Positions 16,103-23,007 of a stretch of DNA of 64,000 nt are shown here, piece by piece (within the stretch, counting starts at the first letter, position 1; each line of letters begins with the position of its first letter). The translations under genes were made by a program, and so were the position numbers. Under the pieces are notes generated by a model. That model saw only the letters and a program-made list of their open reading frames with translations, ran no database searches and was not told the origin of the DNA. Location: positions 1,888,001 through 1,952,000 of the forward strand of contig OZ244937.1 in NCBI GenBank assembly GCA_965222075.1. Reading direction: 5' to 3'. The stretch comes from Candidatus Latescibacterota bacterium. GTDB taxonomy: Bacteria; Latescibacterota; UBA2968; GCA-2709665.

Positions 16103-16864
16103 ATGGACTTTATCCACATCCGTTACGGAGGTAGCATCTTTGCCGCTCTGGCCCGGGTCCGGGAGCGGCACCAGCGCTTTCAGCGCCTCCTTGCGGACCG
16201 GCCAGGCATTCGAGTCGAAACACGTGTCAAAAACCCGCAAGTGGACCTCAAAGCGAGCTATAGGCGCCGGTTTGCCCAGTCGTCTCTGGCCTCTGTGTTG
16301 TTCTGCCTTGCCCTCCTCCTCTACCCCAAGCACGGTCCCACCCTCTCCTTGACCACCGTCCCCACGCCGGTGATCCGGATTCAGAACATCCCCGAAACCA
16401 CCCAGCGGATGCGTCCCCCTCCGCCGCCCCGTCCCAGCGTCCCCCTCGCTGTAGAGGGCGACGAAGTCCCCGAAGACGTCACCATCGAGTCCACGGAACT
16501 CGACCTGGACAGCGTCCTTCCGAACCTGCGCATCACAGGTCCGGTCACATTGGGTCCGCTTGCAGAGGAACCCCTGAATATTGATGAAATTGGAATAACA
16601 CCCAGACCCAGCAAGATTACCATGCCGAATGTAGAATTGGTAAAAAAATACAAACTAAAAAAAGAAACGAAAGTAACCCTTAGAGTGCTGGTCAACAAAA
16701 AAGGTAACGTTGTACACGTAGAGGTTCTCAGCGGTCCCGAGGTTCTCCACAAAGAGGCCATGAAGATTGCGTATCTGGGCCGCTACTTCCCCATAAAGTA
16801 TAAGGGAAGAAAGCGAAAGTTCTGGACAAAGGTAGACATCGATTTTAAACCGGATTCAAACTGA
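16103..16864 (+). CDS. Energy transducer TonB-family protein with divergent C-terminal domain
   Basis: 'KNPQVDLKASY', single TM, Pro-rich linker 'PPPPPRP...EDVTIESTELD', TonB_C-like 'LRVLVNKKGNV..VEVLSGP'. Confidence 0.75.
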   Translation: MDFIHIRYGGSIFAALARVRERHQRFQRLLADRPGIRVETRVKNPQVDLKASYRRRFAQSSLASVLFCLALLLYPKHGPTLSLTTVPTPVIRIQNIPETTQRMRPPPPPRPSVPLAVEGDEVPEDVTIESTELDLDSVLPNLRITGPVTLGPLAEEPLNIDEIGITPRPSKITMPNVELVKKYKLKKETKVTLRVLVNKKGNVVHVEVLSGPEVLHKEAMKIAYLGRYFPIKYKGRKRKFWTKVDIDFKPDSN

Positions 16865-16967: not shown

Positions 16968-17660
16968 TCACCGGACCAATCGGTGTCGAAGCGCGAGTTC
17001 CTGGAGCAAAATCCCATACTGCTCCCGAAGTTCCGGACGCAACGCGAAAGCCCGACCGTATGCCACCGCGGCATTCTCAAAAAATCCCTGGGCCGTCAGC
17101 ACCCGCCCCATCAGCAAATAATTGGGCGCATAATCGGGCGCGCGTTCACTCGTCCTGGTCACCATATCCAGGGCCTGCTCAAGCCGCCGGCGCTGTAAGT
17201 AGGTCCACCCCAACCCCTGATAGGCCTGGATCATATTCGGATCTCGTTTCAGGGCCTGGCGATAGTACATTTCTGCAAGATCGAAGTCCCCCTGTATCTG
17301 GTATAAAAACCCAAGAGCCACCACCACCCCCACATCCGTTGAGTCCAGAACCGAAATCCGTCTACACATCCGGATGGCCTGAGCATAGGCGTCTAAATGG
17401 ATGGATGCGCTGGCCAGAAGGCGCAGTGCCTGGACGTGTGACGAGTCTCGACCGACAAGCTCATGGAGCTCCTCAGCCGCTGCCGCATAATCGCCCGCCT
17501 GCATGGCCTGAATGGGTCCGTACAGTTCCGGAGAAACCTCTACTGAAATCGAATCGCTCTGAAATCCGGGGGTGAGATCCCCTGCCTCCTCAGCAGCAGC
17601 CGGCACCGTGCAGACCGCGGCCCACAATCCTGCCACGGCAAGCACACCTCTCAAGCCCAT
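16968..17660 (-). CDS. Exported tetratricopeptide-repeat protein
   Basis: Signal peptide from ATG 17660; TPR patterns 'ALGFLY...AEMYYRQAL..DP', 'AYQGLG', 'YGRAFALRP'. Confidence 0.85.
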   Translation of the reverse strand: MGLRGVLAVAGLWAAVCTVPAAAEEAGDLTPGFQSDSISVEVSPELYGPIQAMQAGDYAAAAEELHELVGRDSSHVQALRLLASASIHLDAYAQAIRMCRRISVLDSTDVGVVVALGFLYQIQGDFDLAEMYYRQALKRDPNMIQAYQGLGWTYLQRRRLEQALDMVTRTSERAPDYAPNYLLMGRVLTAQGFFENAAVAYGRAFALRPELREQYGILLQELALRHRLVR

Positions 17661-17894
17661 CCTGTCCCCTTCTCTACGCACCAAATTGACAATCCTGCCC
17701 ATTTCTCCCTCGATCCCGGTTCTCTCCACGCCCCCTCACGCATCTCGCCTCCCGCGCCTCCGGTGCGGGGGGAAGGGGCTTTTCCGCGCAGATCCCTCCA
17801 GCACCACCGCCCAAAAACGCCCAAAAGGTCCGCAGGACAGGAACGCCTGCTTACACCACAGGGGCAGTTCGCGGGCAGCCCAAGCGTCTGAGCG

Positions 17895-17974
17895 GCCTGC
17901 CTGCAGCGCGGTGCGCCGCGCAGGCAGGCGCCCTTCTTTTTGGGCCTTTTTCTTGGGCGATCAAGAAAAAGGCC
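17895..17974. repeat. Palindromic intergenic element (REP/MITE-like)
   Basis: GCCTGCCTGC...GCAGGCAGGC (17895-17929) and a perfect 13-bp stem GGCCTTTTTCTTG-ggcgat-CAAGAAAAAGGCC (17943-17974). Confidence 0.55.
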
Positions 17975-18043
17975 TCGCCGAAGGCATGGGGTGTGGAGGG
18001 GTTGTGGATGACGGAGACCGCAAGGTTATTTTCCAGGCAACTT

Positions 18044-18220
18044 CTAAGACCGAAGCACCGCATGGATCCGTTCGATCAGGGGCACTTCTTCGGGTATTTC
18101 CACAATAACCTGAATAACAGGCCGGTTGCGCCAGAGCCTCAAAACGAGTTCCCAGTCCACATCCAGCCTCTGGCACGCCAGCCGCGCCATCAACAGTGTG
18201 CCTATCAGTATCTTGATCAT
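18044..18220 (-). CDS. Possible small protein (58 aa)
   Basis: ATG 18220 after GGGAG; MIKILIGTLLMARLAC...IQVIVEIPEEVPLIERIHAVLRS. No family recognised. Confidence 0.35.
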   Translation of the reverse strand: MIKILIGTLLMARLACQRLDVDWELVLRLWRNRPVIQVIVEIPEEVPLIERIHAVLRS

Positions 18221-18308: not shown

Positions 18309-19391
18309 TCAATTGTTCTCCGCTCCCTGCTCAACCCAGAGCCGGAACCGCTGGATCTCAGCCGGAGAGAAATAGGGCCCTCCCTGAGGCATTCGGTCCC
18401 CTGTGATCCCGGTGCTGCCTTCCAGTTTACGGATCAGATAGCTTGTATTGGGATCTTTCGGTTTCACCCGCTTGAGCGTCCCCTGCTGCTGGCTTGGCCG
18501 ATCCACCAGATCTGCCCAGGCCTTGCCCTGCTCCAGGACCAGGCGCCCGCCGGGGGGAAACCGGTCGCTGGTTGCGTGGCAGCCCACAAACGCGCAGCTG
18601 GCGTCAAACAACGGCTGTATCTGTAAGGCAAATGAGATCGTGGGCGTAAACCGGAAGGTCGCCCGGTCCCCTTGCCCTTCAACAACCCCGTCTCCGGTCA
18701 GGTCCCTCACGCCGCGCACCACCAGGGTATAGGACACCCCCGGTTCCTGGGGCGATGTGGTCAGCCGCACCCGGTCGGGCGCCTCTAACCGGGCATCCAC
18801 GACCAGCAGCTCCCCACCGCCGGTAATTTGATAGTTCCCCACAGACGCGGCAGAGGCCCTGTCCATCTCTTCACTGAAAGTCACCTCCACGCCCACGCTG
18901 TCCAGCGAAACCGCAGCCAGCACCGACGGCGGTACAGGGGGCGCCAACGAGCGGATCGCCCCTTCCCGAATCCATGCCTTGATCGCCCCGATCTGCGCAG
19001 GGGAAAGCGGCGGCCGACCCAGAGGCATTGGATCGCCGAACACCGCCCGCCCGGTTGGATCTTTTCCTTCCAGTTTCCAGATAAGCAGGCTGTTCTGGGA
19101 GTTCCCCGGAATCACATGGGGGCCGTTCTTGCTCGCCGTCGGATCCAGAAGTTCAGCATAGGACACATCCGCCGTGAGCACCAGCCTCGACTGCCGCTCC
19201 CCGGTACCCCCCAATTCGTGGCACCCCCCCGTACAGGACCGGTCAAAAACCCGTTGAACATCCCGGTCGTAAAATGCCGTCGCGCCCGGAGGCGACTGCA
19301 CGGTGGGCGCCTCGGTAAACAATACCGGGTCCCGGGGAGAGCTGCACCCCAGCATAAGAACGCAGATGGCGCAACACAGGAACCGATACAT
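18309..19391 (-). CDS. Lipoprotein with two planctomycete-type cytochrome c domains flanking an Ig-like domain
   Basis: Lipobox MLGC; heme motifs CTGGCH and CAFVGCH, each followed by 'S.L..KLEG...MP' and 'I..W.xxGA'; central Big_5-like 'VTFSEEMD...NYQI...YTLVVRGVRDLTG'. Confidence 0.8.
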   Translation of the reverse strand: MYRFLCCAICVLMLGCSSPRDPVLFTEAPTVQSPPGATAFYDRDVQRVFDRSCTGGCHELGGTGERQSRLVLTADVSYAELLDPTASKNGPHVIPGNSQNSLLIWKLEGKDPTGRAVFGDPMPLGRPPLSPAQIGAIKAWIREGAIRSLAPPVPPSVLAAVSLDSVGVEVTFSEEMDRASAASVGNYQITGGGELLVVDARLEAPDRVRLTTSPQEPGVSYTLVVRGVRDLTGDGVVEGQGDRATFRFTPTISFALQIQPLFDASCAFVGCHATSDRFPPGGRLVLEQGKAWADLVDRPSQQQGTLKRVKPKDPNTSYLIRKLEGSTGITGDRMPQGGPYFSPAEIQRFRLWVEQGAENN

Positions 19392-19399
19392 CTTTTAAC

Positions 19400-20590
19400 C
19401 TACCGGTGACAGTAGCCACAGAAACCCGCGCCGCTCGTCTGCGTATTCACATGACAGGCATAACAGAGAGAATGGGGATTGGCGTGGAAATCCCCCGTTC
19501 CGATCTGATCGGCAAACCGCCTTGGGTGGGTCCTGGGGTCGGTGCCCGCCACGCCGTCAAAATCTACGTGACACTGCATACAACTCGGGTCTTCCCCCTC
19601 CACATCGTGACAGGCCACACACCGCTCAATATCTCGACGCGCCCACGCTGCGTGCCGTCCCCCACCCGATCCCATCCCGGCCACCACCCAGGGGGTAGGA
19701 TCGCCCGGCAGGGGTCCGTGCCAGACCGGTTTGAACCGCGCTTCGTCTCCTTCAATCCGGTGACAGTCAACGCAGAACGATGTTGCATGACAGGTGGCGC
19801 ACTGCCGTTCTTTCCCAACAGCGTCCAGCGAATGCGTAAACCGGTAATTCAGTTCATGCTGCCGCTGGAGGATCTGTCCCACCCGCCCCCGGTCCTGCGG
19901 TGCCCCGGAAGCCATCCGTTCCGCAGGCCCCTCCAGCGCCACCGTCAAAGCCCCGGCATGGCAGTCTTCGCACCAGGTATCCTGGTGGCACTTGGCGCAG
20001 GGCATGTCGGCTGCGCGAGAATGTTGCTTATGCTCGTGAATCCAGTCGGCCCGGTGGTTCTGGGGACGAATGATCTCCACTTTGGGGTGGCAGGTATCGC
20101 AATCGTAGGGGGCCTCCGCATCCTGATGGCAGGTCAGACACTCCTCCATCACCGGCCAGTTCACCCGGCTGGCATAGTCGGTCCCGGTCATATTCCGGTG
20201 GCAGTCCTGGCAGACCATCTCCAGCTTGTCTAAGTGAAACTGGTGCGGGAAATCGATCACCCGTTCCGGATTCTCAAACGCCACCGGGTGCGCCGGATCC
20301 TGGTGGCACTTCTCGCACTGCGCCGGGTCCTCCACCTCCTCCTTGTGGCAGTCGGCGCAGGTCTCCTCCACAGGCAGAATATTGTCCGAGGCCGCCTTGC
20401 TGGTGGGCGCCTTGACGTGGCAATCGGTGCAAAACAGCCCGATATCCAGCAGGTGGTAGCGGTGGGAAAATTTGATGATCGCGCTCCGGTTCTGTTCGGG
20501 AATCGTAATCGGAATCTCCGCTTCGCCGGCCCATCCCCACCCTGAAACCAGCGCAAAAGCCGCTCCCACCCCCCACAGCAGAGCCCTCAT
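19400..20590 (-). CDS. Periplasmic multiheme cytochrome c (14 CxxCH)
   Basis: Signal peptide from ATG 20590; CTDCH, CADCH, CEKCH, CQDCH, CLTCH, CDTCH, CAKCH, CEDCH, CATCH, CVDCH, CVACH, CMQCH, CYACH, CGYCH; c7/c3-like 'FSH..H'. Confidence 0.95.
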   Translation of the reverse strand: MRALLWGVGAAFALVSGWGWAGEAEIPITIPEQNRSAIIKFSHRYHLLDIGLFCTDCHVKAPTSKAASDNILPVEETCADCHKEEVEDPAQCEKCHQDPAHPVAFENPERVIDFPHQFHLDKLEMVCQDCHRNMTGTDYASRVNWPVMEECLTCHQDAEAPYDCDTCHPKVEIIRPQNHRADWIHEHKQHSRAADMPCAKCHQDTWCEDCHAGALTVALEGPAERMASGAPQDRGRVGQILQRQHELNYRFTHSLDAVGKERQCATCHATSFCVDCHRIEGDEARFKPVWHGPLPGDPTPWVVAGMGSGGGRHAAWARRDIERCVACHDVEGEDPSCMQCHVDFDGVAGTDPRTHPRRFADQIGTGDFHANPHSLCYACHVNTQTSGAGFCGYCHR

Positions 20591-21912
20591 GGCGCCCCCC
20601 TCCCCGGTCCTGGCCCGATGAAAAACCACGTGGTCGCCCGAAAGAAAAACCGGAGGTCGTGCGACATGCCAGGAAAGGGGTTTGCCCTGGTCGCCAGCTT
20701 CAGGTCCTGCATCAGATTCTGTCCCTGCAGGCTCAACGACAGGTGCCGGCCTGGCCGGTAGGTGACCCCCAGCGTAGAGGTCACCACCGTACTGCGCGCC
20801 CCCTCCCCCTCATAGAGCCGGAACCTGGACAGGTGGAAACCGCCGTCCAACCAGACCTTCCGGTTCACCCGATAGCGCAGGCTTGCCGTTAGCCCGTCGG
20901 CAACGCCCCCATATCCCCTCCGCCGGATGTAGCCGGCATAGCCGTTCAACACATTGGCGCCCAGGTTGACCCGGTAGCCGTCATCCCCCTCGTAATCTAC
21001 CTTTGAAACCTCCCCGAAAAGGCTTAAGAAACGGTTAAACCGGTAATTTCCCCGGAATGACGCCTCCCGGTTGCTGCTGTGGGTAAAAAGGCTGAAAATG
21101 CTGTTTCGATCCACATAGGGTTTCCTGTAGAGCACCTCCCCCGAAAGGGTGAACCCGTGATAATAGTACCGCAACACCCCTTCCACCCGGCGCGTCTGCA
21201 GCTGGCCGGGCGTGCTCAAATCCCACCGCAGATACAAGCTGAGCAGCCGCCCCAGCCTTCGCTGCAGGTCAAACCCCACCATCTGCTGCTCCACCTCCCC
21301 GGCCTTAATCTCCAGGCTGCCAAGCCCCGCAGCGATCCGGCTGCTGCTGAGGTAGGGCCTGGCCTGACGGCTGCGCCGGTAGAAACTGACCCCAAGGGTG
21401 GTCTCCAGCAGCCGGGACGACATCAGGTGGGCCCCAAACATATGGCCCTCGCCCCACCCGCTCACTCCCTCCCGATCCACCGGGACCAGCGTCCCGACAT
21501 AGGCATCCAGCCGGCCCAGTCCTCCCAGGTCCACATCGGCGCGAATCCCGTCGATCCTCCCCACCCCCACACCGGCCAGCACCAGTTGCCGTCCGCCGGT
21601 GAGCACAAACCGGTCCTCACCCTCTTCCCACCGGAAATATCCGTGATAAAACCGATACTGCGGGTCGTTCCCGGCCCTGTGGCGCAGATCCAGAGAAGCG
21701 CGCAGGTAGGCCTGGAACGACAGCTCCGAACGCCCCAGTCCCATCACCCGAAACCGGGCCGTCTGATAGACCCGGAGGTCCCCACGGCTCACCGTATCCG
21801 GATACGACCGCTCAAAGGTATAAACCGCTGTGGTAAACCGCCCCGTAACCCCGGTTCCGCCGGCGGATCCTGCAAAGAGAAACAGGGCGGTTATCCCGTA
21901 TACCCAGCGCAT
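20587..21912 (-). CDS. Putative outer-membrane beta-barrel (porin of a porin-cytochrome cluster)
   Basis: Strong RBS and signal peptide; amphipathic strands; 'GGRQLV..GVG..RIDG'; last strand FFFRATTWFF; ATGA coupling to the cytochrome gene. Confidence 0.78.
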   Translation of the reverse strand: MRWVYGITALFLFAGSAGGTGVTGRFTTAVYTFERSYPDTVSRGDLRVYQTARFRVMGLGRSELSFQAYLRASLDLRHRAGNDPQYRFYHGYFRWEEGEDRFVLTGGRQLVLAGVGVGRIDGIRADVDLGGLGRLDAYVGTLVPVDREGVSGWGEGHMFGAHLMSSRLLETTLGVSFYRRSRQARPYLSSSRIAAGLGSLEIKAGEVEQQMVGFDLQRRLGRLLSLYLRWDLSTPGQLQTRRVEGVLRYYYHGFTLSGEVLYRKPYVDRNSIFSLFTHSSNREASFRGNYRFNRFLSLFGEVSKVDYEGDDGYRVNLGANVLNGYAGYIRRRGYGGVADGLTASLRYRVNRKVWLDGGFHLSRFRLYEGEGARSTVVTSTLGVTYRPGRHLSLSLQGQNLMQDLKLATRANPFPGMSHDLRFFFRATTWFFIGPGPGRGAP

Positions 21913-22013
21913 CGCCCCCCTCCTCCCATCGGTGTTCCCCAATAAAAAAACGGCCTTTAAAACCGAAGACCGATTTGACCGGCTAAGATCGGCCAGGGCC
22001 ATCCAAAACAAAG

Positions 22014-22256: not shown

Positions 22257-23007
22257 TCAGGCCGACTTTCCAAACTGCTGGGCAAAGTTCACAAAATCCG
22301 GAAAATCCACAGCCCCATTGCCGTTCAGATCGTACTTCGGATCAAACCCGGCATCTTCGCTGCCTTTTCCAAAGTTGGTCGCAAACGCGACAAAATCGGT
22401 AAAATCCACCTTCCCGTCCCCGTTAAAATCGCCGGTCAGGCCGGCGCTGACATCCTCCTCAACCCTCAGCATATTCACAACCGAAATCGGCAGTGGGCTC
22501 CCAGCGTTGACAACAGGGCGGCGTAGGTCCCCAGTGGAACCTCCTGAATCAGCCGCAGCGTATCCCCCTCCACGGAATACCCCAGCGTATCCCGGATGAC
22601 AATCATCGTATCCGGCGTATCCAGCTCCAGAATCAGGCTGGTCTCCTCCAGCCGGTAGGTCCCCTCGTTCTGATTCTTAACGACAAAAACGGTATCTATT
22701 TTTATGGGGGCCCCCAAACCGGTCACGGAGCCCTTGGCCTTTGAGGATATCGTGTAATCTGCATCAAACATCTCATCCTCATCCAGTTCCAGCGTTCCGG
22801 ACACCGACCCGCTGACCGACAGCGAGTCAAGCCAATCGGCATCAGCGCGGGGACCACGTAGATCTGCAGGGCAGTACTGTCCGCTTTCCAGGTCCCCACC
22901 GGATTTCCCCCTTTGGCCTCCGGTTTTGCATCCAGCATCTGTGCGCCGGCCCCGGTAGACCAGAAGGCCAGCAGCCCGCCCAGCAGCACCAAAGTGATCT
23001 TGTGCAT
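22257..23007 (-). pseudogene. Exported lipocalin-like + dockerin/EF-hand protein split by two frameshifts (pseudogene or sequencing error)
   Basis: Signal peptide MHKITLVLLGG... from ATG 23007, continuing into ORF 22475-22804 and then ORF 22257-22478 (GDFNGDGKVDFTDF). Adding one base at each junction restores a single ORF. Confidence 0.75.

Follow-up and report, generated by a model that had tools for sequence, protein, structure and literature searches.

Does a bacterium from a phylum usually read as degraders of organic polymers possess the means to pass electrons across its outer membrane? The question is raised by three adjacent genes in a sponge-associated genome of the Latescibacterota (5.36 Mb, a single contig), located in a 64-kb window, i.e. 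the whole stretch of DNA analysed, to which coordinates refer below unless stated otherwise. Diderm bacteria are known to exchange electrons with minerals, humic matter, electrodes and partner cells mainly by way of porin-cytochrome conduits, of which, to our knowledge, only those of Mtr type and of Geobacter have been experimentally tested. A first-pass annotation based on the sequence had proposed that the three genes encode a conduit of non-Mtr type, made of a barrel, a multihaem cytochrome and a lipoprotein cytochrome. The analysis presented here indicates that they probably encode a conduit of the porin-cytochrome (Pcc) type, in which the cytochrome threads the barrel and, where the outer cytochrome would be expected, a dihaem lipoprotein specific to one clade serves as third partner. 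The trio and a hairpin upstream of it are as follows:

20587-21912, minus strand: outer-membrane barrel gene, 441 amino acids (aa) from the ATG, with a GGAGG box directly 5′ of the ATG
19400-20590, minus strand: 14-haem c-type cytochrome gene, 396 aa, exported; its ATG overlaps the barrel TGA (ATGA)
18309-19391, minus strand: dihaem lipoprotein gene, 360 aa; it starts 8 bp past the cytochrome TAG
21951-21972, minus strand: terminator-like hairpin accompanied by a run of T, located upstream of the barrel start

In the list of open reading frames (ORFs), the trio appears as head-to-tail frames, all on the minus strand, and direct reading of the sequence bears out the linkage noted in the first-pass annotation, namely the ATGA overlap and the 8-bp gap, with GTTAAAAG as the spacer from the cytochrome TAG to the lipoprotein start. 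The hairpin is the likely 5′ boundary of the operon. An alternative TTG frame of the barrel gene extends to 22011; it is unlikely to be used as the start, because GGAGG precedes the ATG and the hairpin with its T-run (21972-21951) lies upstream of this ATG. No usefully placed sigma-70-like promoter was found upstream of the barrel gene (3 sites versus 1.2 expected), the consensus being one that may not fit this phylum.

The product of the first gene, initially described as an exported protein of about 440 aa with amphipathic strands, has a signal peptide of ~19 residues and contains neither Cys nor plug; its family has no match in Pfam or NCBIfam. The AlphaFold2 model, built on an alignment of 23 homologues, has 22 strands and a predicted local distance difference test (pLDDT) value of 80.8. 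Strand 1 begins at residue 21, right behind the signal peptide, and this leaves no plug. With this model, Foldseek returned generic porin, usher and AlgE matches only (template modelling score about 0.4-0.47). In the VIA search, which is independent of Foldseek, the top structural match was the FyuA barrel (Z 19.5, root-mean-square deviation (rmsd) 4.2, 375 residues aligned); 22-strand TonB-receptor barrels ranked first, 24-strand ushers next and MtrB after these (chain 6r2q_B of 649 residues: Z 15.4, rmsd 6.2, 345 aligned). The barrel profile (23 sequences) gave a chance match only against PDB sequences (E 0.2). The doubt voiced at the outset, that the product of 20587-21912 might not fold as a barrel, did not materialize: the model is a barrel of 22 strands with the size of a TonB-receptor barrel. 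Since barrels of the TonB-receptor class normally hold a globular plug in their lumen, the modelled lumen would in principle be wide enough for a haem-packed polypeptide. A pore of 22 strands without a plug, we infer, would leave an uncommonly wide hole in the membrane if nothing filled it. Two other identities were considered and rejected, that of a TonB-dependent transporter on account of strand 1 at residue 21 and the lack of a Plug/TonB_dep_Rec family match, and that of a fused porin-cytochrome of Cyc2 type on account of a barrel without any Cys.

The second protein has exactly 14 CxxCH motifs. Two c7-type trihaem units occupy residues 34-98 and 103-169 (Pfam PF14522, 6.5e-19) and are matched in the PDB by 3ouq (4.2e-12), 1ehj and PpcA, and the other eight motifs form four close pairs; the architecture initially read from the sequence (two c7-like trihaem units plus four dihaem units) is thus upheld by motif count, Pfam and PDB alike. 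An alignment of 80 homologues shows 13 of the 14 motifs without any change and the remaining one in at least 90% of the sequences. It also reveals 11 additional invariant His and one that is nearly invariant, a pattern that fits haems with mostly bis-His ligation. A six-frame scan of the whole genome found just five ORFs with at least three CxxCH and three ORFs with two, so the 14-motif ORF is far from chance.

Co-folding was performed on the mature barrel and the cytochrome, each with its own alignment, in three runs. The median ipSAE was 0.51 (runs 0.46, 0.58 and 0.51), against 0.00 in each of three controls (two with unrelated partners and one with an unrelated barrel-side protein); the runs share at least 53% of contacts, and the partner pLDDT is at least 65. 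In the benchmark, the pass mark is reached by 58 of 80 solved complexes and by 2 of 110 mismatched pairs. Among those that reach it at 0.60 or below are just 7 of the 80 solved complexes but both mismatches, and for this reason the co-fold, which had been proposed with the original annotation, separates the pair from its controls but lends weak support to the pairing, without an interface. Among the components by which a Pcc cluster is recognized, the locus has an outer-membrane barrel in the model (22 strands, pLDDT 80.8, with outer-membrane barrels as fold matches) and, adjoining it through the ATGA overlap, an exported cytochrome whose 14 motifs lie within the range of 5-14 CX2CH. The outer multihaem lipoprotein cytochrome, an optional component, is missing, the lipoprotein having just two atypical motifs.

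The pair of barrel and cytochrome recurs well beyond the window. Barrel homologues number 23 in a word-indexed search and are Latescibacterota wherever labelled; a family profile made from 42 barrels retrieves 1201 cluster representatives at E≤1e-3 and 232 at E≤1e-30. Four of 10 lower-ranked representatives are named, the taxa given being Cloacimonadota and Marinimicrobia, none of them Geobacter, and an Atlas cluster of a 445-aa ‘Porin family protein’, commonest in Thermodesulfobacteriota (score 0.98), is a lead only. For the cytochrome, 211 homologues were obtained at E≤1e-3, with the labels Ignavibacteria, KSB1, Gemmatimonadota and Bacteroidetes. Synteny was analysed in 35 barrel loci, from a scan with one genome per species. 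The barrel is followed on the same strand by a homologue of the 14-haem cytochrome in 33 of them, under at least six phylum labels; the gap is less than ~210 nt in 32 loci and ~1.6 kb in one (L013), and the remaining two loci (L010 and L027) end at the barrel. This adjacency persists down to ~23-30% barrel identity. Homologues of the pair labelled Ignavibacteriota have 35-41% identity in the cytochrome and 25-28% in the barrel, and in nine regions from other families of Latescibacterota the two genes are adjacent without exception (9/9).

These results bear on an explanation that dispenses with a transmembrane wire, in which the cytochrome would be a periplasmic store or carrier of electrons and the barrel would let a soluble substrate diffuse through, as ordinary pores do, to be reduced or oxidized in the periplasm. 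Cytochromes of the c7/c3 type are commonly periplasmic carriers. The barrel without family assignment and with generic fold matches, the weakness of the co-fold support and the paucity of multihaem cytochromes in the genome agree with such a role. However, adjacency and translational coupling have been kept over at least six phylum labels at the low barrel identities just given, all co-fold controls are at 0.00, the plug-less pore would be the wide hole mentioned above if empty, and relatives add lipoprotein cytochromes with the Geobacter outer-cytochrome motif (see below); an arrangement without a wire is considered quite unlikely.

The third protein contains no CxxCH. Its haem sites are CTGGCH (CX3CH, C53-H58) and CAFVGCH (CX4CH, C266-H272), and its layout consists of the lipobox Cys16, a class-I/PSCyt1-like domain (CX3CH, Met122), a Big_5 immunoglobulin (Ig)-like domain and a second such cytochrome domain (CX4CH, Met334). 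Cys16, C53/C57/H58, M122-P123, C266/C271/H272 and M334 are invariant in 31 of 31 aligned lipoproteins, P335 being kept in at least 90% of them. The expanded CX3CH and CX4CH motifs appear to be derived haem sites, because distant members of the alignment show plain CxxCH in the same columns (5/31 for the first motif and 3/31 for the second). In the AlphaFold2 model (pLDDT 86.8), two helical domains flank a beta sandwich (157-247), whose closest matches are Ig domains of S-layer proteins (SbsC, 1.1e-8); periplasmic Ig domains (L,D-transpeptidases, CopC) come lower in the same match list. Family matches of the lipoprotein are modest: PF00034 (class-I cytochrome c) is marginal (21.9 bits versus a cut-off of 21.3), Big_5 is weak, PF07635 (PSCyt1) is not reported at E≤1 and PF09698 has no match. 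PF07635 is recorded for the homologues P0160 and P0177, and the nearest Atlas clusters carry Big_5 plus PSCyt1. With hhalign, the N-terminus, which includes the lipobox and the first haem site, aligns over 80 columns with the N-terminus of a lipoprotein multihaem cytochrome from Kryptonia (probability 82%, E 1e-5). Judged by its motifs and domains, the third protein is predicted to be a class-I-like His/Met dihaem protein with an Ig-like domain and not a multihaem cytochrome like OmcB or MtrC. In other words, the ‘lipoprotein cytochrome’ of the first-pass annotation retains its lipobox Cys16 and two atypical haem motifs, is unlike the multihaem proteins OmcB and MtrC, and is specific to one clade.

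Homologues of the lipoprotein number 35. The loci in which a lipoprotein homologue follows the pair are just 12 (L002-L009 and L011-L014), all with a barrel identity of 46% or more to that of the window, and the trio is kept in 12 of 12 informative loci of the dihaem clade, so that the gene set does not lack conservation in relatives, an outcome that had been named as adverse to the proposal. In the other 22 loci, a lipoprotein-like cytochrome with 4-22 CxxCH comes next in 16 (labelled Kryptonia, Ignavibacteriota, KSB1 and Bacteroidota), one has a truncated start and five are too short. Similarly, a lipoprotein cytochrome with 6-33 CxxCH follows in eight of the nine regions from other Latescibacterota families, the ninth region being cut off. 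PF09698, the CX4CH..CXXCH motif of Geobacter, was found in 5/5 scanned lipoprotein-like multihaem cytochromes of relatives. In Kryptonia-type loci (L020, L024, L025 and L033), the barrel gene is directly preceded by a conserved set of genes for NapC/NirT-like 17-haem, c554-like tetrahaem, Rieske, cytochrome b and 11-haem proteins, which together with the trio would make up a complete predicted path from quinol to cell surface. As a side observation, one Latescibacterota genome (G039, contigs C18 and C70) contains both a dihaem-type and a multihaem-type barrel cluster (the latter being L053), and another (G043) has barrel matches on two contigs (C50 and C62). A barrel tree was computed on 39 rows, six loci with split or short matches having been dropped, by a quick search with support from the Shimodaira-Hasegawa-like approximate likelihood ratio test (SH-aLRT) only and without inference of a root. 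The 11 dihaem-type rows and the truncated L010 form one clade in it (SH-aLRT 100), for which one change of state suffices. Since the lineages around the dihaem clade, from several phyla, have the multihaem state, the simplest reading is that the dihaem protein replaced a multihaem outer cytochrome.

A search for cytochrome maturation and for a quinol-oxidizing partner had also been advised; the genome contains the former and a candidate for the latter. CcmE of the cytochrome c maturation (Ccm) system adjoins a Cytochrom_C_asm ORF of 669 aa (CcmF size), two further Cytochrom_C_asm matches are present, and the ResB/Ccs system has no match in the genome. About 625 kb from the trio, a respiratory supercluster (G000:C1:2529000-2539000, L037) encodes a HEAT-repeat protein, a Rieske protein, cytochrome b split into N and C genes, an 8-CxxCH cytochrome (1026 aa, in part multihaem, in part FixO-like and in part class-I), a CarboxypepD_reg protein, COX2 and COX1. 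Its oxidase is an A-type haem-copper oxidase; a second haem-copper oxidase is encoded in the genome, in which no bd oxidase was matched, and with this equipment the organism looks aerobic. The Rieske/cytochrome b complex is the sole quinol-oxidizing candidate found in the genome, where the Kryptonia NapC-like 17-haem protein and lipoprotein multihaem cytochrome have no tblastn match at E 1e-3. Rieske/cytochrome b genes of Caldithrix were set aside as irrelevant here since, in the available passages of PMC5317091, they belong to a Nap cluster. Elsewhere in the genome, a molybdopterin oxidoreductase frame of 921 aa (G000:C1:1196680-1197951) contains one in-frame TGA and is maybe a selenocysteine enzyme, e.g. 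a formate dehydrogenase.

This respiratory equipment suits a variant in which the wire is the same and the lipoprotein faces the periplasm, where, tethered to a membrane, it would shuttle electrons at high potential between the wire's inner end and the bc/haem-copper oxidase chain. Barrel and cytochrome would then make up the whole conduit, a two-component arrangement like that of MtoAB/PioAB and of two-gene Pcc clusters, and the flow may run inward from an external reductant. His/Met class-I-like haem domains are typical of carriers feeding oxidases, and mtoD, a class-I cytochrome gene beside mtoAB in Sideroxydans, would be a parallel. The PF00034 match above its cut-off, the invariance of M122-P123 and M334, the two haem-copper oxidases without a bd oxidase and the bc-type cluster joined to an oxidase all point the same way. 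Moreover, in the available text of Shi 2014 (PMC4245776), it is argued that Pcc cytochromes of 12-14 haems could bridge the membrane with no need of an outer partner, and related loci come from oxic marine water and ferromanganese-nodule sediment (according to record titles and, for L005, an isolate label in the accessible part of PMC10367259). Yet the gene occupies the slot of outer lipoprotein cytochromes in every relative, its N-terminus aligns with that of one such cytochrome, and the Big_5 domain is closest to cell-surface S-layer domains, although periplasmic Ig domains are listed too. A lipoprotein turned towards the periplasm is possible but less likely.

According to the preferred reading of a Pcc-type conduit with the lipoprotein in the outer position, electrons would be handled as follows. 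The 22-strand barrel would sit in the outer membrane, and the cytochrome would be exported to the periplasm, where the Ccm system would attach its haems. Threaded through the barrel lumen, its chain of closely spaced, mostly bis-His haems would join the periplasm to the cell surface. The translationally coupled lipoprotein would be the third redox partner, in the gene position of the outer multihaem lipoprotein cytochromes of relatives outside the clade, and would most likely dock where the wire ends on the outside, forming a short His/Met dihaem terminal, probably of higher potential. On the inner side, the candidate partner would be the Rieske/cytochrome b complex, whose genes lie beside those of the 8-haem 1026-aa cytochrome and the A-type haem-copper oxidase. 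Extracellular electron transfer as such, the direction of flow and the external substrate are what we infer from this arrangement.

Several points weigh against this reading. The co-fold pass is weak and comes without an interface, two His/Met haems with an Ig domain between them are ill suited to act as a wire, and the predicted lipoprotein may lie on either face of the membrane. The whole family is so far a predicted one; resemblance to the Geobacter system is by description, and so is that to IALB_1838/1839 of Ignavibacterium album, none of the members of 10 cytochrome clusters being labelled I. album. In the available text of PMC4245776, I. album itself did not grow on Fe(III) or Mn(IV) oxides. 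The five genome ORFs with at least three CxxCH and the missing relative of the NapC-like 17-haem protein are unlike what is seen in dedicated metal reducers. Finally, the distribution is patchy, the barrel being present in 27 of 168 genomes of the phylum, in 4 of 21 of its own family and in 0 of 15 of one genus (mostly near-complete genomes). Patchiness and the small number of multihaem cytochromes weigh against a major respiratory role.

Occurrence data are relevant here. Among the matches listed, the stretch or part of it is found in 20 sequencing runs from 11 studies, and the contig-level comparison covered four runs. One of these, a DNA run with the label sponge metagenome, contains a relative's contig of 4.3 kb that spans all three genes with 193 differing letters, and another run yields a contig of 3.7 kb that differs in one place. 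Two RNA-library runs, from a single study and also with the sponge-metagenome label, contain short contigs that cover parts of the lipoprotein and cytochrome genes and differ in 0-1 letters, a weak hint that the trio is expressed, DNA carry-over into RNA libraries being possible. The listed pieces include no RNA-library contig over the barrel gene or the gene junctions and, the contigs being of low depth, this is silent on transcription. The patchy distribution in phylum and family, together with a 255-bp multi-copy repeat inserted just downstream, might suggest a decaying remnant of an ancestral conduit that is now without function. Against such decay stand three intact frames, intact coupling signals, conservation of the 14 + 2 haem motifs, the ligands and the lipobox Cys over 44-97% identity, and the RNA-library contigs that match the genes, which together make it extremely improbable.

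The neighbourhood of the trio includes one further gene that accompanies the dihaem-type cluster:

16968-17729, minus strand: exported tetratricopeptide repeat (TPR) protein, 253 aa (Pfam TPR families)

Of 12 dihaem-type loci, 10 have a tblastn match to this TPR gene downstream of the lipoprotein gene; of 31 other loci searched, none has. The protein is possibly an accessory co-inherited with the dihaem-type cluster, unless the linkage reflects shared ancestry alone. The neighbouring genes (TPR, TonB, histidine kinase, beta-helix, aldo-keto reductase, amidohydrolase and a dockerin-type ORF) fit a polymer degrader, in agreement with the organic-matter-degrading surroundings initially proposed. 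Downstream of the cluster, the positions of two genes are conserved among the 12 dihaem-type loci, that of a gene for a TonB C-terminal domain (16103-16864, plus strand) in 9 and that of a gene for a GBBH-like_N domain (PF06155; 15476-15826, minus strand) in 8. The 255-bp repeat (17790-18044) lies between the lipoprotein and TPR genes, has 107 blastn matches across the genome, and shows very high contig depth with many loose ends; the contig of a relative skips precisely these 255 bases. It looks like a MITE- or REP-like insertion (miniature inverted-repeat transposable element or repetitive extragenic palindrome). On the other side of the trio (22260-22804, minus strand), a 109-aa ORF abuts a 71-aa dockerin/EF-hand ORF (PF00404, 2.3e-7) in a different frame. 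In the 94%-identical locus L002 both matches share one frame, for which reason the gene may be split by a frameshift in the window; several relatives carry homologues upstream of the barrel. All 2-kb bins of the window (1-64000) show a negative GC skew, ranging from -0.08 to -0.29.

The Ignavibacterium-type Pcc pair is a large family (the 1201 barrel-profile representatives), with labels from several related phyla and reaching into the Latescibacterota, in which one clade would have swapped its outer cytochrome, in a single step, for a quite different and probably high-potential dihaem lipoprotein. A bolder version, in itself unlikely, is that one clade of aerobic, partly sponge-associated Latescibacterota re-tooled an ancestral electron-exporting Pcc conduit through this swap. 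The resulting high-potential wire could feed the bc/haem-copper oxidase chain with electrons drawn from an external reductant, for instance Fe(II), Mn(II) or reduced organic matter, or could deliver electrons to a high-potential external acceptor. With either direction of flow, a heterotroph living on polysaccharides would acquire an extracellular redox reaction missed by any marker-gene survey. Should the variant work, the range of organisms and habitats for extracellular electron exchange would widen to include oxic sea water, nodule sediment and sponge tissue. It would also offer a compact three-gene system for asking how the outer partner sets the potential and direction of a wire.

How, then, does the trio compare with known systems? 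With the 22-strand TonB-dependent transporters (FyuA, BtuB and Cir) it shares the architecture of the barrel, these being the best matches (Z 18-19.5, 350-375 residues aligned); unlike them, the barrel of the window has no plug, no TonB box and no Pfam Plug/TonB_dep_Rec match. With Shewanella MtrCAB and with MtoAB/PioAB it shares a principle, that of a haem wire inside an outer-membrane barrel (PDB 6R2Q). MtrB-type barrels have ~650-700 aa and 26 strands (6R2Q), and the Mtr gene order is mtrC-mtrA-mtrB, from which that of the window differs. The MtrB chain of 649 residues compares with a window barrel of 441 aa and 22 strands, to which it fits less well than TonB-receptor barrels do; Mtr has 10 haems in its wire versus 14 here, and the window lacks an MtrC-like decahaem protein. 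PF22113 (MtrC/MtrF domain), tested on the trio, gave E 0.0062 and 16.5 bits versus a cut-off of 30. An Mtr-type identity is ruled out by the 22-strand, 441-aa barrel and the 14 + 2 haem motifs.

The OmbB-OmaB-OmcB/ExtABCD-type conduits of Geobacter sulfurreducens have, by description, the same gene order and logic as the cluster of the window, and their PF09698 motif is found in the third gene of the cluster's relatives. The haem numbers differ, OmaB and OmcB having 8 and 12 haems in the available text of PMC4245776 versus 14 and 2 in the window. In the same text, Pcc porins are given 18-22 predicted strands and are much smaller than MtrB, their periplasmic partners have 5-14 haems, and the outer cytochrome is optional, being missing from the Anaeromyxobacter and Kuenenia clusters.

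The closest likeness is to the predicted pcc cluster of I. album (IALB_1840-1837), which Shi 2014 (Front Microbiol 5:657, PMC4245776) describes as comprising a periplasmic cytochrome (IALB_1840), a porin-like protein (IALB_1839), a 400-aa periplasmic cytochrome with 14 motifs and an outer cytochrome with atypical motifs (IALB_1837), its proteins being distantly related to all other Pcc groups; in the available text of Arbour 2020 (PMC7399161), such Ignavibacteria clusters are termed OmbB-like PCCs. As described for I. album, the order from porin-like protein to periplasmic cytochrome (~400 aa, 14 CX2CH) to lipoprotein cytochrome with atypical CX3-4CH motifs is that of the window. Ignavibacteriota-labelled loci (e.g. 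L034) show the published gene order and sizes, and on this basis the pair of the window is, as likened by description, the Latescibacterota branch of the Ignavibacterium-type Pcc family. The claim of a non-Mtr conduit therefore stands in its 22 strands and 14 haems, and gives way in that its kind is not an undescribed one. No paper describing such a cluster was found in the literature on Latescibacterota and multihaem cytochromes, iron or sponges, in which supplementary tables may list such genes. Unlike the I. album cluster, that of the window has no periplasmic cytochrome gene upstream, and its third protein has no more than two haem sites, each of atypical form, which lie in class-I/PSCyt1-like domains on either side of an Ig-like domain. 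What is already known is thus the Ignavibacterium-type Pcc kind, itself predicted; what is new is its occurrence in the Latescibacterota and the dihaem third component.

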